A stretch of 64,000 bases of DNA from Microbotryum violaceum (lineage: Eukaryota), in the NCBI GenBank assembly GCA_001244265.2, contig CDLV01000010.1, positions 806,001-870,000 on the forward strand, written 5' to 3'. Positions 2,074 to 32,952 of this stretch are shown here, one piece after another; the stretch's first letter is position 1, and each line of letters opens with the position of its first letter. Position numbers and translations under genes: made by a program. The notes below the pieces were generated by a model. That model searched no databases. It was not told the DNA's origin and saw nothing but the letters and a program-made list of their open reading frames with translations.

Positions 2074-3106
2074 TCATATTCCAAAGCACTTGTTCAACTC
2101 CTGCGCAACCCGTTTCGGATCTTCAATCGCAATCCAATGTCCCACACCTTCAAGGACAACTTTGCTCGCCAGGCCCACAGAGCGCTCGGTCGATCTCGGC
2201 GCATTGATCTTGCCCACAATGGCGTCGATCATCTTTTCATCACTGAGATAATCCTCCGACCCTCCAATAACGACCACTTTGCTTCGGATCTGGGTATAGT
2301 CGGGATCTTGGGCGCTCGCTAAAGCTTCACACGCAGCGGCATAAGCTTGGGGGTTCGTTCCGAGCACGAGCGCTCGAATCAGTGACAGCGTCAAGGGCGA
2401 CTCTTTCTTGGTGCGCGAAGAGGTGGCGGATTCGGCGATTTTGGAGACAATAGACGAAAGCCCGGATGAAGATACGGTCGCGGCTCGTTGTCTCATGACG
2501 GCTTTGGTCGAGTCGAGAAGGGCCGACATGGGGCCGAGAAGGACTGATATTTTACGCGAGGGATCAGAGGCGGGACACGGGACACGGACGGCCGAAATCA
2601 GCTTCCATCGCCACCCTATGTGAAGCCACGCCAAGGGGAGCCGTAACGTTGTCCTTACCGAGCTTCTCGACCTTTTCGGGCCACTTGCTCGCGAAAGTAG
2701 TTGCGACCAATCCACTCATCGAATGGGCGACGATTCCTCTTGCGCTCTCGACTCCAAAATAATCCATCAATTCCTTGAGATCATGGGCCAAGGAATCGAT
2801 CGACAGAGAGGTTTGTAAGGGCGAAAGTCCATGGCCGTTGAAGTCGTACGAGATGAGTCGAGAAGTGCTTTGCGAGAGCACGGCCTCGTAGAAGGTATGG
2901 GATGAACCCAGGCCGTGGAGAACTGTGAGAAGGCCCAATACGGTAGTATTTAGAAAACCGCTGAACTGCAATCGTGCCTCTACTGCCGAGAGAGGGAATT
3001 GAGACTGACAGAACACGGTCGGAGCATCGGATCTGGGGCCGTTGATGACCGAGACGAACAGTTGCCGCCCGCTCGGGTGCAGCGTCACGACGCCTGAATC
3101 GACCAT
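2074..3106 (-). CDS. Alpha/beta hydrolase, 3-oxoadipate enol-lactonase-like; 2 introns
   Basis: Joins ORFs 2564..3106 and 2074..2715. Motifs LHGLGSS (oxyanion), DFNGHGLS, AHSMSG (nucleophile), GGSED and GVGHW. The fold is clear; the substrate is inferred. Confidence 0.8.
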
Positions 3107-3379
3107 GGCTTAGGTGTTATAGTGGCAAATAGAGAGGGAGGAATGTGGTAAACTAAGAGGGAAAGACTATTGTTCGCACCTCTCGTTCGGCGTCATGATG
3201 GGAGCCGGAAATGAAGCTCGACGGAAACCACTTCCCGAATCGACCAGCGTCGACCCAAGTCGATCATGCATGATGCATCATGCATCATGTGCCAAATCGG
3301 CAAGTCGCCCCCGCTCCGCACGCGCGTTTGAACTTTGGGTCAAGTTCTCTCCACACCTGACTGGGTACACGGCGCAACC

Positions 3380-3988
3380 ATGGCCGACGAAACAGTCAGT
3401 CCCAGCGCAATCAGCGTGCAGTTTGATTGTTGACTGATCTACTCTTCTGTGACCATCAGAAAACAATCTACGTTGGAGGCTTCTCGAGCGAGACCTCGGC
3501 CACGACCTTGGAGTCGGCGTTCCTGCCGTTTGGTCAAGTCGTCGACATCCAACTCCCCCCCGACCCCGTCAACAGTCAGTCATGCCAATGCCATCGAGAC
3601 TCGTCACTGTCCATCTGACCCAATTAGTGCTACCTGTGTCTGCTCAGAATCGCGCCACCGCGGCTTCGCGTTCGTGTCCTTCTCCTCGCTCGAATCCGCG
3701 CTCGACGCGATCGACAACATGCACCAAAACGAACTCACCGACCCTTCCAACAAGGGGAGAACCCTCAAAGTCAACATGGCCAAACCGCCCAAGGGACTCA
3801 AGCCCGGTATGGGCAACAGAGCTAGTCAGTCCACCGCGCCCAGTTGTGTGTCACCCACCACCTCGAAGGGAGCCACTGATCGGTCGGCCTTTTTTCTTGC
3901 AGTCTGGACCGACGAGGCATGGATCAAAGAACACGGCATGCAGTCGATCGAGGACATGCATCAGCAAGTCGGCACCGCCGGGCCGTGA
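3380..3988 (+). CDS. Single-RRM RNA-binding protein resembling the RRM of cyclophilin E/Cyp33, with no PPIase domain; 3 introns
   Basis: MADET|KTIYVGGF (RNP2)...AFLPFGQVVDIQLP...RHRGFAFVSF (RNP1)...ALDAIDNMHQNEL...RTLKVNMAKP...AVW; stop at 3988. Confidence 0.85.
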
Positions 3989-4238
3989 GCGCGCCGAGTC
4001 ACCCACCACTCCTCCCAAGTTCCCGTTTCCGCGTTCAGTCGTCTATCACCACATGTTGTGCCAATACTACCCATCGAACACAGTTATGTGTTCTGTTCAG
4101 TCCTTTCTCTCACTAGGCAGATCCAGCAGCTCGTCCCCTGAGTTGAGATACATAAGCATGCATCGCATAGGCATCACAGCACATCAAAATAGTTACCTTG
4201 ACACACAATAAAAACAAGAATCGACTACGGCTCTCCAC

Positions 4239-6533
4239 TCAGCTCGTCACAAAGTACCTATCCCCAAAGCTCCCCATCCCCGGCAGGATCGCAAACACCT
4301 TCTTGGAACCCGACCCATCCTTTTTCTTCTCCCACCTTTCTTCCAACCCATCATCCGCAGCCGAACTGACGATCCTCACCCGTGGGAAAGCCCTCTTCAA
4401 TGCCCACACCCCACCGAGTTTGGAAACGAGGATCGCACAGATGATGATCTTGGCCTCGTCCACTCCGTGATCTAGTAAGACTCGGACGGCCATCAAGGCC
4501 GCGGCCCCTGTTCCGATTTGGGAATCCAGAAGCAAGACCCACGTCTTCTTGGCGGACTCTTTGGAGCGGGTTAGTGCCTGAGGTAATCGGATCGAGTACA
4601 GCAGCGGTTCGCCCGATTGGTCGTCGGATTGGATCAGCATCGACCCCACGGGGATCTCTCGCACGACTCGTCGAAGGCCCTTCTCGAGCGAGGCGCCAGA
4701 GCGAAGGATCGAAACGCCGACCAAGTGTCCGACGTCAATGTCCAGCTCTTGCCCAGTATGAAGCACAGAAGTTCGTGTGGTGATGGGCTTGGATCGGTAG
4801 GGGAGGAGGGACAGCGATCTTTCGACGACGAGCGTCGACAGTCGGTTCGCATAGAATAAAAAGTCTGCTGCCGGTGTCGAGCTGGACCGAAGCAGAGTGT
4901 GAATACCCTGCACAATCGGCATCAGGAAAGACGTCAGAGCTTAGAGTATAGGCAAGCACGTCGGAAGTTAGCTCACACTCAGCTGATTCGTTTGTTCCAT
5001 CAGCACCACCGTATCCGGCAACCCATCCTTGGACGCCAAGCGATCCACCGAGATCTCTCTACTCCGTTGGCTCACCAGTCCAGCTCCACCATCCCCATTC
5101 GTGCCGAGCTTTGCGTTCGCCCCTTCGGTCTCGACAAACAACTCCTTGCGCAGCTCCTGCTTTCTCTCGTCCAATTGTCGCCGGATGTGACCCGCGATCA
5201 ACTCGACAGAGATTTCGTTGTTCGATCCGGGGACGATGATGTCTGCGAATCGAGATGTGGGCTGAATATGGTTATCGAAAGCGGGCTTGACGAAGCGTAA
5301 ATATCTGTAAATATATGTACCATCAGTTTCAAGAGCGCGCACACGCATTCATCAGCATCGCACTCAACTGGTCCAAAACCCCGGCGGCATCCCGACCTCG
5401 CTCGACGAGATCCCGTCGTAAACGCCTCGCGAGCATCAAGTCCGAGTCGCACTGTATACCACTAAACGACTAAGCAACATCGTCGTAAGGAGATTATGTA
5501 GAAGAGAACGCACCTGAACAAAAACCTGTCGTTGATCGTTTACGATTGGTGACAAGTAGCAAAATCAGTTCTGGGTCGTGATAATTCAGGCTCCACCGAA
5601 TCATCCCCTCGTACTTACCTTGAGATCATAAACATCTCTCAGACTCTCGTGCAAAGCATGAATACCCTCGACGATAACGACTGTCGCGCCATAGATATAC
5701 GTGGTCTCGTCGGTCCTCGCATGCTTGGCGAACGAATAATTCGGCAACTGTACAGCTTCGCCAGCTCGTAATCGACCTAGGCAGTCCCGTAGGAGGGCTT
5801 CATCGATTGAGGTCGGGGAATCGAGGTCATGTTCACAGCGGAAGGCGGCGGAGAGCTCTTCGGGCGTTAAGGGCTTGTAGAAGGAATCTTGGGAGATGAC
5901 GACGACCCACCTGCAGCGGAGGGCGACAAGGGAAGCCCGGAGGTGTGAGCATATCGGTGAGGAGACTATGAAAGCGTGGAGGGTGGGACTCACGGTACGC
6001 CTAATTTCTTAAGTACTTCTGTAAGAAGCATCTCCATGACTAGTGATGAGCATCACCCACTCATCGTCCCCGGATCTGGAATGGGGAACGAGTGACTGAC
6101 CCTGAGCGACTCGAGTCTTGCCCGATGCAGAACCGCCTCCGATGCCAATGACGTATGCCGTTTGAACTCCTCCATCTGTCCAATGGAAGGGAAACAACAA
6201 GAACGATGATTTGGGTGATTGCGGGAGTAGGAGGAAACGCGGGGCGAATGAGGCTGCTGTCCTTCGCCGCCGCTGCGTTTACCCCACATGTCACATGGCG
6301 GGCTTGGGCTCCTCGAACGACCGAGCGAACCGATGAACAGCACTAACCCTTGTCATACCATGGTGGTCGACTGTTTCCAAGCGAGGGACAGAGATCCAGT
6401 CAGAACGCACGCAGTAGTAGGTCATAAATGCTTCAGATGAGACTGACCCAGCCTCGGTCAATACCGTGTTCTTGGGTAGGAGCGCGCTTTTACCGTTCGA
6501 GAGCAGAGGAGCAGGTGGGCCACTTCGAGGCAT
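4239..6533 (-). CDS. URK1: Uridine kinase with C-terminal UPRTase-like domain; multi-intron
   Basis: RPPWY..., P-loop IGIGGGSASGKT, ISQDSFYK, VIIVEGI, YLRFVKPAFDNHIQPTSRFADIIVPG; C-terminal UPRT-like GIHTLLR...DFLFYANRL...GVSILRSG...LLDSQIGTGAAALMA...PGMGSFGDRYF. Confidence 0.93.
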
Positions 6534-7374
6534 CGAGGAGGGGGAGATGCAGAAAGGGATGGGCGAAAGAGCAGAAGATATAAGTGAAGTAGAGCGGACC
6601 CGTCGAAAACGAGAGGGTTTGAGGGCTAGACGAGTGTTGATGTGGGAAAGAGCGTAGAAGAAGGCTCGTCGCCGCGGTCGATTGACGTTGCTCGCAGCCG
6701 CCTTCCACTTGCAGACGCGCCTTCCAGTGCTCCAACTCCGCACCAGACGGGCGAAAGAGACGTCTCGGAGCTAGCTGACAGCAGCTCGACACCCGTCGTC
6801 AGAACGATGGGACGAGCCCGGGGAGAGGCTAAACCAAAACAAGTGATGTTCGTCCATCGGAGACTTTCGTAAAGTTCGGTTGACGCTCAACCTCTATAGG
6901 CCAAAAAAAAACCAGGACTGGCCCCTTGAAAGAAAGGGGCTGCTGGCTCCCTAGCCCTCACGGCCCTAAATCCGGGCGACCGCGGTTGGTGGAACAGACG
7001 TCGCCCGTCCAGCCATTCGAAAATGCGGTTCAACTTCAGGCGGCTCACGGTCTCACGCACGAGTCCCCCATCTCTCGGCCGAGGTCGCCGTCACAGCGAA
7101 TTAGGCGTATGCCGGATCACAAAATCTCTCCATTCTCACGGTGTTGGGTAGCGATGGCTTAGTCATTACAAGCAACGACCGATCGACAGCAACCAATAAA
7201 AACAAAGAGCTGGCTCATGATATAAAGGGCGAAGCCCGTTCTCATGCCCAAGAGTGAAAAACGAAAATGGTGATGGCACGCCGACTCGATGCGCTCCTTC
7301 GCGAATCGGCGACGCCCCGAGGTGATGACGATGCCATGAGTCGACGAGGAAATTGAAGGGGTTCGAGGACACAT

Positions 7375-7894
<520 letters not shown>

Positions 7895-8198
7895 TGTATG
7901 TGAGAGGTTTGAAGACTTGGAGAGTGTAGAAGGGAGAAAGTGCTGGTAAACAGGATCGTCGGGTTCGAGGCGCGCGCGCGCCGACCTAGGTCGAGGCAGG
8001 TCATGTTTGGATGCGACGTCGAGGTGCGACTCGCCTTAAGCTCACATGTCGGCCTAACTCGAGGCACTCTTGTCAACAAACGAGCCCACACGCATCAAAT
8101 CCAATTGGCTCGCCTCCCTCCTGGCTCTCTCCCTCTCCCCATCTCGCGACTCTCGCACTCACTCAACACTCACCCCACCCAAGAACCTCTAAATCAAT
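7895..8198. promoter_or_regulatory. Divergent H3/H4 promoter region
   Basis: ~300 bp between head-to-head H3 and H4, the usual fungal arrangement; contains CCAATTGG (CCAAT on both strands) at 8101-8108. Confidence 0.7.
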
Positions 8199-8684
<486 letters not shown>

Positions 8685-9965
8685 ACAACCGGCTTTCGTC
8701 GGCATGGCTTTCACCTACGAGGTCGCGTCCTCGTTGTTGTCTTCACCAGCTTTGTGCTTTCGTCTTTCTACTCTATGCGGGGCTGCATCCTTTGTAGTCT
8801 TCGTACCATCTTTTTCACTCCATCCCGCCAAAGGGCTTTCACATGATCCTTTCTTGAGCAAAGCCTTGGGTGGGCCAGCATGATAAGCCTTCTACATCAA
8901 ACAGCGCATTCTGTCTGGTACATTTGCTCGTACAGCCTTCCCGCTGTACGGGTTGACTGGTTCATGCGCACCCACCACCCTTAGGCCTCCTGTCCAGGTC
9001 GGATCAACTGTTCGAGCCGTTGGCGCCCATGGCCAGTATAGGACGCGAGAGGGGTGTGTGTCTCTTGGTAGCAATATTATGTTCTCCCCAGAGATTTAGA
9101 ACTGCAGGTCAAGGAGAGACCATCACAAAAGCCTGACGGATCGTGCTCTAGTTGATCGGGAGAGCATCTCCGGTGAACCCGCATACCCCTGCTTTTCTCG
9201 GCAGCCCCTGCAGCAACCCGCAGTTCCCCCAGAGTTCCCCGGCCGGCCGCGCTTGCGCAAAGGCCACAATAAGCACATTTTCATTGTCTCGAGTGAAAAA
9301 GACTCCCTCCACTCGCCTTGCTCGGAGAACGCCAACATGACCGCGTACAGTGCCCACAAGGCCGCGGCAACATTTGGACCAAGAAGCTCGCGGCCGACCT
9401 TGAGCTTGAGGCCTTGAGGGCTTCACCGTCGTCGTCTTCTAGCTAACCCTGGCGCGGTCGCCACCGGCCTAACCGAGGGTGGCGAAAATTCCAAGACGCC
9501 GGCCAAGAACTATTGCGACCACATCACCAAAGCCCCAGAACGGCAAGTTCCTCGGCCCGCAAGGTCAAGTCATGCTCTGGGAATTTTCCCCTCCTCACCT
9601 CGGTGCTACTATTTCCTCGCATCGTTACCTGGCGCATGTGATCCCAAATATTCGGTATGGCGTTTACATCTGTGCAACCCTTGTGTTTAGATAGTCAGAA
9701 CCAAATGTGCAGAAACGCTTGTGCGTCCTTCTGTGATATGCCTCCTCTCTGTGTGTGCCCTCGCATCCCGAAAGTGAAACTCGGACAGTTCGCCGATTTC
9801 TGATTCGGTGCGGAAAGTGGTATCCGGGTTTCCCCTGGCTCCGTGACCCGGGGAGCCGTTGATCGAGTCTTTGCCTCTTGCTTTCTTCTGTCCTACTCGA
9901 CGTCCGGTATCCACCAGCCTCAAAATTTCCACCAGCACCACACTTTACTACTTGCTGCTTTGACA

Positions 9966-19760: not shown

Positions 19761-21999
19761 CTACTCTTTTGCCTTCTTGTCCTTCTTTTTCTTCTTACTC
19801 TTTTCCCCCTCCTCGACCTCGCCATCGTCCTCGGCCTTTCGCTTCTTCTTCTTGTCCTTCTCCTTCTTCTCCTCGTCCTCAGCGGCATCCCCATTCGCCT
19901 TGCCTTCCTTTGCCGCCTTTTTGGCCTCCTTCTTCAGCCTCTTCCTCTCCTTCTTGGCCTCCTCGTCCTCCTCCCCTTTTACAACGCGCTCATCCTCCTT
20001 CAACAGAACCTTCTCGTCCACAGCCATTTCCATCGGACCCGTCGCCGTCGCAGTAGGCAACAAGAGCGTATCCGCCGCATCGTTATACTTTGCCCCATTC
20101 CCCTTCATCTCAAACTTGGACTGTTGCGCCCCCGTCTTGCTCAACGAACGCAAGGACGTGTGCCCTATACCTTGTTCGAGCAAACGGAGACGTGCTTCGA
20201 GTTTGACGCGGTTGTCGAATCCGATCGTGGCCGAATCGAGGGACGATTTCGAATCGGCGTCGGCGAGGGCGTCTAATCGGATCGAGAGTGCGGCTTTGGT
20301 TGCTACCATTCGTGCCATCTAGGTGCAGTGCAGGAGTGGGTCAGCGTCAGTACGGTTGTTCGGATATACGGCTCGTCGAGCATTCGGCGCAAGAACTAAC
20401 CTTCCCCTTAAGCTTTTGCGGTGCTTGGCCGACCAAGGAGGCGTGGAAAATGAGACCGTACTTGGGAGTATCGTGCTTGGTCTTGAGCGCCCTGAACAAG
20501 GCTTTCTCCGCGCCCAAGATCTGCACGGTCGACGCCGGGTGCTTCGCGAGCGACAAGAGCGAACCGGCGTGGGCGATCAACCTCGCGCCGACGAGTTCAC
20601 CGACGAGCGCGGTCAAGTTGGGTGCGATCGCAGCCATGCGGTTGCGCAGGTAGTCGAACAACTCGGAGCGGTACTGCGTGATCGAGATGACTTGGTCCGC
20701 GAGCAAGAGGATGTGGTTCAGATCGGTATCGGAAATTTCGGTACCCATCGAGATGGCCGCGGCGGACTTGAGCGTCTCCTCGAGTTCCTCGGGCAGGATC
20801 GCGGAAAAGTCGGTCGTGTTGTAGTTGGTGCGGAACCCCATGGCCTTGACAACCTTGGCGTAGGTGATGTTCTCGGAGACGATCTTGCCCATTTCGGGAA
20901 AGTGCCACCCGTACCATTCCTTGACCCTCATCGAGTAGATGTTGATCTCCTTGTCGAGGTCGTCGAGCAAGGCGATGGCCTGCACGATCATGGTGTCGAC
21001 CTTGTCGGGCGAGAACTTGAGCTTGTACCGCGACACCGAGTGGGAAAGACCGAGCTCCATGGTCGAGAGGTCCTTGGGGTCGATATCGCCGAGGAGGGTC
21101 GAGAGCTGTTGACGGATTCCTCGGTAGAGGTCGTTGACGGTCGAGTCGGAGATGACGGACAGTTCGAGCTTCTTGGCGATGGCACCGGCTGGAGGGAGGA
21201 GGCAGGATGGGATCGTCAGTCTTTGCGTAGAGGCTTCTTGGGCTAGGAACCGAGGGCCGCTTACCGAGCTTGGGTTCAGCGACGGCGAGCTTCTCGGACT
21301 TGAGCTTCTTGTTGCCGGTGATCTCGTCGGTAAGGAACTTTTTCAGCGCCTTGGACACCTTGCCCTCTCCGATCGAGGTCATGTCCTCGACAGCACTGGC
21401 GGTGGAGGTGTAGCGGTGGATTGCCTGCAACTTGACCCTGTGCGAGGGAGAAGGTCGAGGAGGGAATTAGGACTTAAAGTTAGTCTGCTTGTGTTTGAAG
21501 ATGGGGTTGATGTTGTGGTTGGTTGCATCGGATGGTCGGGGCGGAGGAAGTGTCGGGTCGAAAAGACGCGGGCGGCGGGCGGGCGGACCGGGGAGAGCGG
21601 CGCGGAGGACGACGCATACACTAGACTTTCATGTCAAGTGGGGGTGTGGCATGAAGAATCGACAATCCAGCCGTCATCGCGGTGGCGGCCGAGCTAGGGA
21701 GCTGAGGGTCGTCGTGGTCCGTGCCGAGTGCTGGTGGCGGCTGGCTGCTGCGACGAAGCTTTTGCGAAGTGTCGACTTCGGCCCTGAGCCTGAGCCTGAC
21801 GCCGGGCTGGAGCCATTTCACCGCCGCCAAGGTGTGGTCGACCACAGTCATCACAGCCAACACGGCCCGGTACGGCCACTCACAGGTTGGAAGCCGACTC
21901 GGGGTCATCGAACTGCTTGTACAGCTGCTTGTCGTCGAGCTTGCCGTCCTTGATCTTGAACAGCGCCAACCCGACCGACGATTCAAACAGCACCAACAT
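19761..21999 (-). CDS. NOP58: Box C/D snoRNP core protein Nop58; introns 21438-21883, ~21188-21265, ~20322-20400
   Basis: [15 protein letters not shown]..., [93 protein letters not shown]-rich tail. Confidence 0.97.
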
Positions 22000-22561
22000 C
22001 GCGACGAGGAGTTGTGCAAGAGTCTGGCTGGGTAGAGGTGGAGATCACTTGAATAGAGGCGACGGCGACGGAGCGGAAGATGGCGAGGCGAGCTCGAGGA
22101 TTCGAGGGGTGGGTGGTAAGCACGAGTACAAGTCGACGGCGGCCACCGCGCGAAGCTCGTCCGGGCGGGGCCATTCACGCGAACGATGGCCCCCTGCGGA
22201 CTGGGCCATACGGGTTGGGCCTTCGCCGGCCAACGCTAGCCGACGCTTACTGCTGCTAGCTGGCGGCGGTCTTGCACCGATAACTTTGTGAACCTCGGCA
22301 CCATGTACAATATCCAGCAGCTCGGTTCAGAACACTAACACGTCCACTCCCTTGCCTGACTCGACCGAGCCTAGTCAGAAGAAAATCCTCGGGCCCGAAG
22401 CCGACTGACTGCGAAAACTTGCCGCACCCTCCGAGATCATGGTACAGCAACGAGTGAGGCTCGCCTCATGCTGAACCCGAGGACCCATCCACTTTCGCCC
22501 TTGAACTTATCATCGTACGCAACGGCGAGCCCGACAATTCTTCCTGGCCGGCCCCAGCGCC

Positions 22562-22593
22562 TCGAGGTTCACCGTCGAGGTTCACCGTTCACC
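22562..22593. repeat. Short tandem duplication (TCGAGGTTCACCG x2 plus partial copy)
   Basis: tcgaggttcaccg tcgaggttcaccg ttcacc, read directly. Confidence 0.8.
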
Positions 22594-24101
22594 AAATAGG
22601 GGCGCTCCCCTGGCGATCCCTGCGAACGTCGAGCGGGAAAGTCTCAAAAATGCGTCGTTTCGCTTCTCACATTCCACCAAATCACCACCGGTCTACTTAT
22701 ACAAACGGGACCATAACAAGATTTTTGTTTGCCTCGCATGCAATCGCCATGCTAGTCATGGCGTTCGGAAGGGACGCGGCTCGCAGCACGCCGACGCCGA
22801 ATCAGAATTACTCGAGGACTTAGCCACCACAAGCGAGTAGGGAGGCATATTCAGACAACAGACACCGGATTAGGTCAAATTACAGGTACAATCTAACACG
22901 CTACTGAACGAAGCGAGTTGGAACGAGGTAGGTTTGCGAACTTGAAGTCTATTCAGGTCACGTCATGCTCTGAAGGAATCACCTGCGGCGCGGCGCGTCG
23001 TACCGGACGAGCGTTTCAAAGCGCCTAGACCAGACCTTCAAACTGGCGGCGGAAGCGTGTATACTCGTCGACTACTTGGATCGGGTAGTCCCGGTTGGAC
23101 GAGGGTGCTCCCAAGGGGCGTGGTAGTCTCGGGAGAGTGTGAATTTCTGTCGGTGGAGGGGTCGACAGCCGTGAATGCCGGTGCCACCCTGACGAGCGCC
23201 AAGATGGTTTGGGGGGCCGTGAGAATTCTCGACACTGCTGGTGTTTCCCTATCACCCATACGCCCGGGTCTTGAGGGTCAGACGCCCGATAGAACCTCAC
23301 ACGCACACGTTTGGGGAAGGAGCAAAGTGGATCGACCTACCGTGCCAGCGCCGACCTCGTCCGTCGCCATCTCAATCGCGGTGTAACCCGATGAGGTAGC
23401 CTGCCTCGAGCCGTCTTGACCCTGACTCACCGATGGTTACTGTGCCGCTGTAGGGAGCTGTCGGTCGTGCTGAGTGCTGCTTCCTTGACCCGTGGGTTGC
23501 CGATAGTCGCGGGGGTTCCGGTCTGAATCACACACAATACCGGGCCAAGACCTGAGGATTAAATTTCGGAAACGGCCTCACACTGCAGTGGAGAAGGAAC
23601 AAAGTAGATCAACTTACAGTCTCAACAACTTCATCAGCCGACATGTCAATCCCGGGCTTAGGACGCTTTTCGGAGCCGCGTTGGTCCGACGGTTGCTGCA
23701 GCGACAATCCAGGATCTTGCTCAGCCTGGTCCTGCACATCGAGAGTACTGGGTCAGTTTGTTAGGTCGAGCTGAAGAGTATCGAGTGTGAGAGAGAGGGA
23801 GCTTGACGTCAACCACCTCAGGCTGGTAACACTTGGCGACGATGAGGACTGTCAATAGAATCGACGAAAACACTCGAGGGTGCCGGGCGGGATCCCATTT
23901 GAAATGTTCGTACAGATAGAAGCCTGTAAAGCCTTCAACAATGATGATCATGAACAATATGCCTGCGCTGGCGTGCGTTGGCGTGCGTGAGTAAGTATAA
24001 CAATCGCGAGGGCCTCAGCAACTTGGGAGCACATCAGCCACGATGCCTCCGATCGAGCTGCGAACATACCGACGCTGGAGGACGCTGGCGAGGACTGTGC
24101 G

Positions 24102-24459
24102 ACTGACTCCCGACTTTGGCACCCCACTAACCTCCTCTCCGAATCCTCCAACACGCGTCGCTCCACCCCATATCGGAATCGGATGCACAAACCCAAGCAA
24201 AACTTCTGGGAACCCCGGCAAAAACCATCTCTAGCAACTCCACTGCTGGCAAAGACAACCTCCGCGCAACGGGGCTTTGCCAGGACTTGCGTTGCTGGAA
24301 AAGGTCTTGATGGGATTTTCCAAAGCTTTGTTCCGGTTTATACACCCGGTTCCGCCATATCGATTTCGTGAAGATGCCGCGGTCGCGACATGGGGTGGTG
24401 CGACGCGTGTCGGAGGTGTCGGAAAGGAGGTTAGTGGGGTGCCAAAGTCGGGAGTCAGT
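24102..24459. repeat. Long inverted repeat / fold-back hairpin
   Basis: 24102-24175 matches the reverse complement of 24386-24459 at 68/74, with a perfect 35-bp core (24102-24136 / 24425-24459). Degenerate pairing continues inward to a ~20-nt loop near 24255-24274. Confidence 0.95.
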
Positions 24460-25525
24460 TTGTCGATCGCCAGCAGGCGACCAGGCGTATCGACTAAGGC
24501 ACGGGGCCAGCAGCGAGTTGCTCAAATGTGTCTGAGGGTAGTGGTACGGGCGGTTGAAGAGGCGAAGAGGCTTCGAGTGAGAAAGACCGGGCATACGAAG
24601 GCGGGAAAACGCGGGGTGCGTGGCCGGAGAAAGAGCGATCCAAAGACGCCGAGCAAGCGGGAAGCCGACTGTGCCAGAGACTTGCGTTCGTGAGGCACTT
24701 CACGCAAAATGTGGACCGATTATTGACCTGGGATTGGTCCGGGGACGCGAGTTGTTGACCTTGTTTGAGGGATCCCAGGGAGAGGAGGTGGGCGGTATCT
24801 CGGCATCCGAGTGCAGACTGAGCAAACCTTGCGCATGACCTTGCACCACGAGTCCCAGCGTTGCGCGGGGAAAGTGAAGATCTTTTGATGTCGTTTGGGG
24901 ACAATAAGGGCGTATAGGAAGGTGTGGTGGCATTGGACGCGTTCGCAACCGAGAACGGAGTTATCACCTCGCTGAGACGGTCACTGGGGCCTCGGAAGAG
25001 CTTCGGGTTCACGGATAGTTGAATTCCGTGGCCCGCTGTGAAAATGAGTACGTGGTTGGCCCATCGCTCGAGGTAATGAGCCTTGGGGAGTTCCGGGGTT
25101 GGCGGTTTGGGGGGCTGAGCGTCGTTGCCGACGCCCAGGCTTCGAAGTAGCGGACCCAGGGGCCAGCGCTCCAGCCTTGAGGCAGCAGTTCCCTCGTCTC
25201 CTTACGCTCCCGGCGGCCCGGGATGTCGGCGTCCAGGATTTCAAGTGGGGAGTAGTGGCACAGTCCGGGAATAAACGGTGACAGATGCCGGAGACAGAGC
25301 GTGTATTCGAGACAGGCCTTGTCCTTGGGCGAACAAGCATTGGCGACGCAGCTTGAATACTAGTGTGTAACAGGAGAAAGAGGTCCAAGCGCAATCTGGC
25401 CGCAGACTTTGGCAGACTTTGGCGCGCGCTGCATGCCCCCCCTCCCAGCCAAGCAGTTGCGCGCTGATGACCCTCCTTCCCGTCCATCACCCGACGCGAA
25501 CCACCTCCACCCCCCACCGTCGATC

Positions 25526-27594
25526 ATGTCATTGTTCTGTTCGATCTCGGGGCAACCGCCGCTGAAGCCGGTGCTGTCGATCAAGTCGGGCCACGTCTAC
25601 GAGCGCGAGTTGGTGCTCAAGTACCTGCGCGACAACGATGGCAAGGACCCCATTACCGGCCAGCAACTGACCGACGAAGACCTCGTCGAGATCAAGACGG
25701 GTACGTGCACTCTTTATTGTTGAGGACCATGCTGGGAACATGCCATGCTGGGGGAGTGGTTCTGCATCTGCCCTGGTCTGGCAGTCGAGGGCTTGCGTCG
25801 TTGTGCTGCTGGCTCATGGCGGTGCCTGCACTCGATCGCATCACTGCATGGCCCAGTTTACGCACCACCGACTCCACCTCAACACTGTACTGATAGTTTG
25901 CTTCTGGCGCCCCGTTGCCTCAGCGCCGGGAGCTCCATCTGCGCCGCCTCGCCCGCCGACTTTCACCTCGGTCCCCGCGCTGCTGCACACCCTCCAGTCC
26001 GAGTGGGATGCGACCATGCTCGAATGCTTGGAACTGCGTCGTGCCGGCGAGGAATTGCGACAGGAACTCAGTCACGCGTTGTACAAGGAGGACGCCGCGA
26101 TGCGCGTGCTCGCAAGGTTGACACGGGAACGTGACGAGGCCAGGGAGTGAGTGCACACCACTATTTTCATTCTTTTCGGAACGGATATCATCGCCTAGAT
26201 GACAACGACCGCGGTGTGGAATTATGGATCCTGACTTTCGTGACTACCCCCTCACCCAACAGAGCGCTCGCGTCGGTCAAGGCGACTCTTGGTCCTGCCT
26301 TCTCGAGTGGTGCAACGAATGGTGCCAGTGGTGATGTCGAGATGGAGGCATCGAACCAAGCATCCGAAGCACCCGAGGCCGGCCTACCTGCAGAGGCGGC
26401 GCAGATCGTTCAGGACACCAACAAAGCGTCAGTCCCTCGTGCCGGCGTCCCCATCCCACTTTCGAAGGTGCTCATTAGGTCTCACGGGTGGTTCTTCCAC
26501 AGTCTCTCTGCTACACGACGAAAGCGAAAGGCCCCTGCCGATTATGCGACCGCTGATGCGATCAAGGCCTACACAACCACGACCGCGATTTCGAGTCTGC
26601 ATACGACCAAGCCCGCCGGACTCTCGGCACTCGCCTTGGCCAAAGATGCGTCTTTGATCGTTACCGGAGGGTGAGTGCACAATCTCGTATCGAGTCGAGT
26701 CTCGAGCTGCGGACTCATGCTCACACCGGTGTGTCGCCCGCGTACCTTGCCTCCAGCCTCGACAAAGCCGTCCAGGTTTACGACCGCTCGACCTCCAAGA
26801 TCGTCGCCACGCTCAAGGGCCACACCAAAAAGGTCTCTGCCGTCATCGCCTCGTCAACGCTGACCGATGCCGGTCTGCCGACATTCCTCGTCTCTGGCTC
26901 GCTCGACAAGGCCGTTCGCGTCTGGACGCCGAATGGAGCCAAGACCGTCTATGGCTCGACGATCCTCGCGACTGGGGGTGAAGTCAGTGGGCTGTCGCTG
27001 CACCCTTCCGGACGACTGGTCGCATCGGCCTCGTTGGACGGATCGTGGGCCATCCACTCCCTCGATGGTGCCAAAGCTTCGACCGTCTTGACTGGGCAAC
27101 TTCCCGTCGAGGGCGTCTCGAGTACCTCGATCGCTTTCCACCCCGACGGAGCCATCTTCGGTCTCGGCTCTTCGGACGGTCAGATCCGTATCTTTGACAG
27201 CGTCACGGGCAAGATCGCAGCCACATTCGACACGACCCTGGGCGAAGCAGTCGTATCGTTGTCCTTCTCCGAGAACGGTTACACGCTCGCCTCGGCGTCC
27301 AAAGGCTCGAACAAGGTGCAAATCTGGGACCTGCGCAAGCAGACCAACTCGGCCAACGTCGAGCTGCCCGAGGGCGAAGCCACCCTCGTCAATCAGGTGC
27401 GCTTCGATCCTTCGGCGCAGTATCTGACCGTCGTCGGCAACGACTTGCGCGTATTTGCGAACAAGACGTGGGAACCGGTGCTGGTTAATGAGGAAAACAC
27501 GAGCGAGATCACGGGCGTCGAGTGGAGTGCGGACGGGAAGGAGATCGCGACGAGTAGTCTGGATCGATCGGTTAGGTTCCTCGGAACGGCTTGA
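25526..27594 (+). CDS. PRP19: Pre-mRNA splicing factor Prp19 (U-box, coiled coil, WD40); 4 introns
   Basis: [34 protein letters not shown]...KDPITGQ (U-box), [26 protein letters not shown]...[22 protein letters not shown] (Prp19 coiled coil), WD40 repeats. Confidence 0.97.
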
Positions 27595-32906: not shown

Positions 32907-32952
32907 GCGTACGATACAATACAAATAACGCGTACGATACAATACAAATAAC
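32907..32952. repeat. Exact 23-bp tandem duplication in the convergent 3'-UTR region
   Basis: gcgtacgatacaatacaaataac twice in a row. Confidence 0.9.

Follow-up and report, generated by a model that had tools for sequence, protein, structure and literature searches.

The window analysed in this work, a 64-kb stretch of DNA corresponding to positions 806001–870000 of contig C8 in a genome of 33.2 Mb and 20 contigs, contains a fold-back in the 3.5-kb interval that separates two divergently oriented genes, a Nop-domain gene on the minus strand (ATG at 21999), which we take to be NOP58, and PRP19 on the plus strand (ATG at 25526). The features of the interval are collected in Table 1. The relatives of PRP19 detected in metagenomes (11 loci with 30–58% identity) were too remote or too short for synteny. 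Elsewhere in the window, a perfect 23-nt tandem duplication was present at 32907–32952 in the interval between an SMC-hinge gene and a GRAM/VASt gene, and two 49-nt copies with a tRNA-like T-arm motif, 88% alike, were found at 56730–56778 and 57428–57476. The latter pair possibly represents SINE-like or intron-split tRNA remnants; no tRNA was called by ARAGORN within the 64-kb window.

Table 1. Coordinates of the fold-back, the adjoining LINE remnant, the neighbouring genes and the spliced RNA within the window.
Feature	Position	Strand	Basis and remarks
Left main-stem arm	24102..24175		Inverted-pair search and arm alignment; perfect block 24102-24136
Right main-stem arm	24386..24459		Inverted-pair search and arm alignment; perfect block 24425-24459
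Left inner arm	24176..24254		55/78 columns match the right inner arm
Loop, 20 nt	24255..24274		Arm alignment
Right inner arm	24275..24354		Arm alignment
Right-arm insert, 33 nt	24355..24387		Exactly at the border of the 92% and 71% stems
Weak outward extension	24071..24101		Pairs with 24460-24489; contains an 8-bp GCTGGCGA match
Decayed LINE ORF2 C-terminal fragment	24567..25200	-	Genome matches and profile; RVT_1 in intact copies
PRP19	25526..27594	+	U-box, Prp19 and WD40 domains; divergent neighbour of the fold-back
NOP58/NOP56-type gene	19761..21999	-	Nop domain; same strand as the RNA and downstream of it
Inferred spliced non-coding RNA, ~2.3 kb	22854..25340	-	X17 contigs 9-13, 0 differences; LINE fragment and hairpin in exon 1
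Intron, 95 nt, GTAAGT..TTCAG	23523..23617	-	X17 contig gap and splice sites
Intron, 92 nt, GTAGGT..GATAG	23249..23340	-	X17 contig gap and splice sites

The main arms, each 74 nt long and spaced by 210 nt, paired at 68 of 74 positions (92% complementary) and were the longest among the 61 inverted pairs in the window. An earlier note on this DNA had described these arms and their perfect 35-bp block, and all of it was recovered by the arm alignment. Its other geometric claims also proved accurate: the ~30-nt bulge on the right arm corresponded to the 33-nt insert, the loop given as ~20 nt measured exactly that, and the more degenerate inward pairing was present in the aligned inner columns, with an inner fold that beat its shuffles. 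The six mismatches of the main stem fell at 24137, 24143, 24144, 24150, 24162 and 24172. Counted inward, the mismatches increased stepwise from 0 of 35 to 6 of 39 and then, in the inner stem (24176–24254), to 23 of 78 aligned columns, so that identity dropped from 100 to 85 and 71%. The step between the two stems (6/74 versus 23/78) gave z ~3.3 by hand for a boundary picked post hoc and coincided exactly with the 33-nt insert, the first 8 nt of which are a direct copy of left-arm positions 24168–24175; judged from its letters, this insert with a copy of the opposite arm may be a template-switch scar. The whole element (24102–24459) occupies 358 bp. The span of 24010–24540 originally assigned to the fold-back was generous: weak outward pairing did exist, but only to ~24071/24489, where the local alignment starts, and beyond these points the arms appeared in the alignment to match only loosely; the solid fold-back is therefore ~24071–24489.

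Folding of both strands, as suggested in the earlier note, gave structures that beat all shuffles (z about -14 to -19). For 24010–24540 the values were -13.9 on the plus and -15.3 on the minus strand (0 of 100 shuffles as good on each), and for the inner part alone -5.0 and -7.0, respectively (0 of 200 on each). At 24090–24470 the minus strand was 22 kcal/mol more stable at equal z (-18.5 minus, -19.0 plus). The minus-strand fold included a 40-bp uninterrupted duplex followed by 2x2 and 1x1 loops, and the rod was kept in the centroid fold of a 1.5-kb minus-strand context. A sliding 150-nt fold over 21900–25574 revealed no second strong local structure (lowest z -2.8).

Three of the main-stem mismatches are transitions (24137, 24150 and 24172), which become G-U pairs on the minus strand, exactly as had been stated; the strand bias claimed on this basis, however, was not significant. 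The strand-neutral arm alignment comprised 147 Watson-Crick columns, 12 G-U pairs on the minus strand, 8 on the plus strand (P = 0.50) and 16 other mismatches, and within 24102–24254 the G-U counts were 12 versus 6 (P = 0.24, by hand). This tilt favours the transcribed strand and is too small to count. The mismatches within 24102–24254 consisted of 18 transitions and 11 transversions, a spectrum that looks like neutral decay. With 29 mismatches in ~152 columns, a perfect 35-bp run has a probability of ~0.015 under uniform decay (by hand), and the uneven identity can be explained by selection, by a TIR origin or by later homogenisation of the arms alike. Template switching homogenises inverted arms in yeast, transcribed DNA included, according to PMC8604942 and PMC3820800. 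Since it can do so without selection, and since the G-U bias was not significant, the earlier argument for a selected precursor was left unsupported. The hairpin was near-identical in sequencing runs X15 and X17, and the flanks were equally so; among 40 listed of the 143 substitutions in the comparison of four runs described below, 0 fell within the hairpin.

Copy number and the adjacent LINE remnant

When the 531-nt region and the right arm were compared with the genome by BLAST, the two arms were the only matches (a lower bound), and the flank at 22850–24100 was likewise unique. The search for copies that had been proposed as a check thus returned a single-copy element rather than a dispersed MITE family. 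Two further places matched an 18-nt motif of the core when as many as 2 mismatches were permitted; both carried 2 mismatches, their number was about that expected by chance, and at the one inspected the match did not extend. Neither BLAST nor the core-motif search found a trans-target for the hairpin in the genome. The arms matched no TE, Pfam or Rfam entry, the two Rfam hits being chance ones far from the gathering score, and the core pattern was absent from metagenome contigs, viral contigs and phage records. In agreement with the earlier report of no clear target-site duplication, none of 2–9 bp was seen by eye at 24102/24459, and no flanking direct repeat of at least 10 bp was detected at symmetric ends. 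A 10-bp direct repeat at 23752/24454 was rejected as a target-site duplication: a match of this length is roughly what 1.2 kb would yield by chance, and the loose end of the run X22 contig continues like a filled allele. Close to the end of contig C1 (L063, 1532–2227) lies a small element whose inverted ends measure 19 bp and which is rich in GATCT/GATCA repeats; C2 seems to carry a duplicate near its own end.

A LINE remnant absent from the earlier note, frameshift-broken and on the minus strand, begins ~80 nt outside the right arm. Its part at 24567–25159 was 71–76% identical to 39 other places (40 scored of 132 candidates), and the closest copy among those scored was a divergent one at C8:435597–436184 (76%). 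The matching LINE copies are ~98% alike, ~5.2 kb long and encode a reverse transcriptase. With a profile of 13 LINE 3' ends, detectable homology stopped at 24570, and nhmmer gave no match of the right arm to this profile; the match of the LINE C-terminal codons to 24480–24545 was weak, with a score attained in 5 of 198 random windows, and a forced alignment of the right arm with the LINE reached ~47% over 85 columns (hand count). Because of the profile end, the weak codon match and the low forced identity, the arms were not shown to be LINE sequence, and the right arm as a LINE 3' end was discarded as unsupported.

PRP19 and the LINE fragment are joined by a single 11.8-kb contig in run X22, which is ~10% diverged; the LINE was thus in place before that split. 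At its loose end this contig resembled codons from further along the LINE, which the window does not have (23 of 30 by eye, compared with the LINE copy L039), and the 3' end of the LINE would therefore have been rearranged in the lineage of the window. Nothing at least 80% alike was found in X22 over 23819–24546, where contig 24 runs for 1,118 nt from 23737 toward the hairpin; as no contig joins across, this gap was not counted as absence of the hairpin.

At other sites, nested inverted and tandem repeats with arms of 250–590 bp, 81–95% alike, were observed to enclose a divergent LINE 3' fragment (L025, C8:430000–439900, at 3078–9901). Two LINE copies on C6 (L026, C6:609000–618900), ~1.1 kb apart, inverted head-to-head and 99.85% identical over 4.1 kb, form a very young large palindrome. 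In the LINE 3' UTR, as represented by L024 (716–890) and related copies, a short motif resembling a stem-loop is preserved between subfamilies with 70–80% likeness; the UTR terminates in TAAA repeats or poly(A).

Evidence of transcription

Four sequencing runs were compared over 23000–25700, and transcription was indicated in one of them, X17 (organism B, kind not on record), in the form of contigs, not single molecules, with the strand given by splice sites, not over the right arm itself. Two stretches of 92 and 95 nt, both bounded by CT..AC and hence GT-AG introns on the minus strand, are missing from a 1,091-nt contig of this run, which reached 24131, inside the perfect core. Further contigs with 0 differences covered 24107–24454, i.e., across the hairpin, 24430–24890, 24866–25157 and 25128–25340; the break at the core is explained by the 35-bp perfect repeat, which breaks a 31-mer graph. 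The depth was zero at 23251–23329 within the 92-nt intron and no piece was present at 25341–25540, which argues against DNA carry-over; both introns were retained in X15 and X22. Run X20, guessed to be RNA, was rejected as transcription evidence, consisting of scattered pieces at a depth of ~3 with intron sequence included. The ends of the RNA are contig ends and unmapped, the 3' end at ~22854 being extrapolated from 146 unaligned contig letters. At the hairpin the X17 contig depth stepped from 11–12 (24107–25340) to 32 (23000–24131), which may reflect a stalled reverse transcriptase, a 3' bias, another start site or cleavage.

A spliced minus-strand RNA free of credible ORFs probably runs from the PRP19 promoter through the hairpin, and the splice orientation in X17 independently supports the minus-strand transcription, divergent from PRP19, that had been suggested from the letters. 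Toward PRP19, contig coverage breaks off at 25340 and is taken up again at 25541, inside that gene. At the other side, the RNA ends ~850 nt upstream of the ATG of the NOP58-type gene on the same strand; it could interfere with that gene from upstream or serve as a long alternative leader. Its longest ATG frames encode 155, 119, 90, 77, 76 and 68 aa; the RNA had no Pfam match, and the 155-aa frame, which starts in the LINE remnant, matched nothing in Pfam, Atlas or the exact collection; on these searches a protein-coding gene was rejected as not credible. Between X22 and the window, 54 differences were counted in 475 nt at 23094–23568 (exons), compared to 42 in 427 nt of the dead LINE, and the downstream part of the RNA carried in X22 several frame-breaking indels of 1–2 nt.

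RNAi genes and known hairpin RNAs

The genome encodes a Dicer whose single 1388-aa frame holds two RNase III domains, two Argonautes (Piwi loci) and one RdRP; the check for Dicer and Argonaute recommended in the earlier note was thus positive. The same RNAi gene set is reported as present and expressed in M. lychnidis-dioicae in PMC4469406. The fold-back was compared with the mi/milRNA criteria of PMC9757828, among which are Dicer-dependent small RNAs that exceed an abundance threshold and derive to >80% from one strand. Its minus-strand 40-bp duplex lacks secondary stems and large loops; its arms matched no TE, Pfam or Rfam entry, with a LINE remnant adjoining; and a putative precursor on the hairpin strand was suggested in one of four runs by the spliced minus contig entering the core and by contigs, not molecules, spanning the hairpin. 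As a MITE or foldback transposon the element fails, having only two arms (in lower-bound searches) and no target-site duplication; as a Mu-killer-like locus it fails with arms outside the detectable LINE homology; and the spliced RNA fails as telomerase RNA for want of a template, the telomere repeat being taken as TTAGGG after PMC4469406 and PMC12119880. Fungal telomerase RNAs are further characterised by a pseudoknot and a three-way junction (PMC3592445). With a near-perfect stem of ~70 bp, ~150 bp in total, a spread of siRNAs would be likelier than one duplex.

Drosophila hpRNA loci, which are lineage-restricted sources of endo-siRNAs with homologous target genes, consist of long inverted repeats carried by spliced Pol II transcripts that do not code for protein. 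The fold-back resembles them in the long inverted repeat, the apparently spliced non-coding RNA and a putative lineage restriction and differs in the target, none being found here by the genome searches. At the maize Mu killer locus a hairpin RNA is made from a neighbouring promoter and the hairpin itself is transposon sequence; a probable neighbouring-promoter hairpin RNA and an associated transposon fragment are shared, but no LINE sequence is detectable in the arms here, and the divergence of the LINE fragment from the copies scored amounts to 24–29%. MITE and foldback elements are similar in a size of ~360 bp, inverted termini and non-coding content, in contrast to the single copy lacking a target-site duplication found here. 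Fungal mi/milRNAs, including the Neurospora milRNAs, as presented in parts of PMC9757828, are alike in the intergenic single-strand fold-back within a transcript, in the lack of an Rfam match and in the presence of Dicer and Argonaute, whereas in the present locus, known from sequence and contigs alone, a TE fragment shares the transcript. The homogenised quasi-palindromes of yeast, as described in PMC8604942 and PMC3820800, also combine an imperfect inverted repeat with a perfect patch in transcribed DNA; those repeats are short, while the arms here are ~150 bp and the event is deduced without before/after alleles.

The use of natural long hairpin RNA by fungi is still described as open in PMC9757828, and Microbotryum is mentioned 0 times in its main text. 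In published literature outside supplementary gene and lncRNA tables, no description of the locus was found. The fold-back offers a cheap test case: it is present once, seems to be transcribed and spliced, has a long perfect stem and lies in a genome that encodes RNAi genes. Small RNAs arising here would identify an endogenous hpRNA in a lineage for which none was found described in the literature; if there are none, the locus would count as a common scar of rearrangement and would show that selection cannot be deduced from a perfect core accompanied by a few G-U pairs. It seems rather improbable that this is already a young functional hpRNA gene, the stem of which primes RdRP spreading into the LINE part, as an anti-LINE silencer with a non-TE stem, or sends small RNAs to the host plant. 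If so, one spliced lncRNA from divergent promoter transcription would join a dead LINE fragment to a Dicer-ready stem in Pucciniomycotina.

Origin of the fold-back

The explanation preferred here, with a probability of about 55%, is an old single-copy inverted duplication by a dead LINE, with the outer 74 bp re-homogenised, situated in exon 1 of a non-coding RNA from the divergent PRP19 promoter. The duplication, a fold-back or template-switch scar, would have arisen where the 3' end of the old LINE was lost, and a second copying event between the arms would have renewed the outer 74 bp; the template-switch origin and the lack of selection on the structure are both presumed. Bidirectional activity of the PRP19 promoter would then lead to minus-strand transcription across the fold-back. 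The transcript probably makes dsRNA: one RNA molecule with both arms is predicted to fold into a ~70-bp near-perfect duplex, which Dicer may cut at some level, giving small RNAs expected to match their own transcript only. Points against a scar are the 35-bp perfect run, improbable under uniform decay and explained by selection or a TIR origin as well as by conversion, and the fact that the G-U tilt and the 22 kcal/mol both point toward the transcribed strand, without being significant. Searches also gave no source for the sequence that was duplicated, with no detectable LINE match for the right arm. The locus is a real, probably transcribed fold-back of a known kind and a fair small-RNA candidate, for which selection and a target are unsupported; its features are closer to those of an old duplication scar next to a dead retrotransposon than to those of an established small-RNA gene.

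A selected hairpin-RNA or milRNA precursor, whose near-perfect stem would yield small RNAs against a fungal or host target or prime RdRP spreading into the LINE fragment, is unlikely. It would account for a spliced minus-strand RNA over an intergenic locus with no Rfam match, for a long uninterrupted minus-strand duplex in a genome with Dicer, two Argonautes and RdRP, and for G-U pairs tilted toward the transcribed strand, but this bias is not significant, no genomic target was found, the core motif recurs elsewhere at about the chance number, and the LINE fragment would make a poor silencing guide because of its 71–76% identity to the copies scored. The inward drop in identity from the outer edge, typical of long TIRs, together with a MITE-like length and an adjoining second TE, would suit a lone relic of a non-autonomous TIR or foldback DNA transposon with ends at 24102/24459, inserted at the LINE end. 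We nevertheless consider such a relic quite unlikely, given that no second copy, no target-site duplication of 2–9 bp and no symmetric direct repeat of at least 10 bp was found and that a weak symmetry persists outside the supposed ends; to our knowledge, these termini are also unlike those of the TIR superfamilies.

A cis-acting role is a very doubtful alternative: the lncRNA would tune PRP19 through the shared promoter, or the NOP58-type gene by tandem interference, with the hairpin setting stability or termination. It agrees with the contig gap at 25340–25541, which frames a divergent promoter, and with the RNA ending ~850 nt before the next ATG on the same strand, but not with X22, in which the conservation of the exons does not exceed that of the dead LINE and frame-breaking indels occur in them. 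A housekeeping structural RNA (telomerase RNA, SRP, RNase P/MRP) might be imagined from a ~2.3-kb spliced non-coding RNA with a long rod, yet this reading is largely refuted and extremely improbable, as Rfam gave two chance hits only, none near the gathering score, and a LINE remnant lies inside the RNA. Telomerase RNA was specifically rejected: CCCTAA is absent from both strands and TAACCC from the minus strand, which leaves no TTAGGG template, a rejection that holds unless another telomere repeat is used here. The string (TTAGGG)3 was not found in the assembly, and contigs C8 and C3 (L003 and L004, respectively) start with one shared subtelomere-like sequence that contains a ~79-nt tandem unit.
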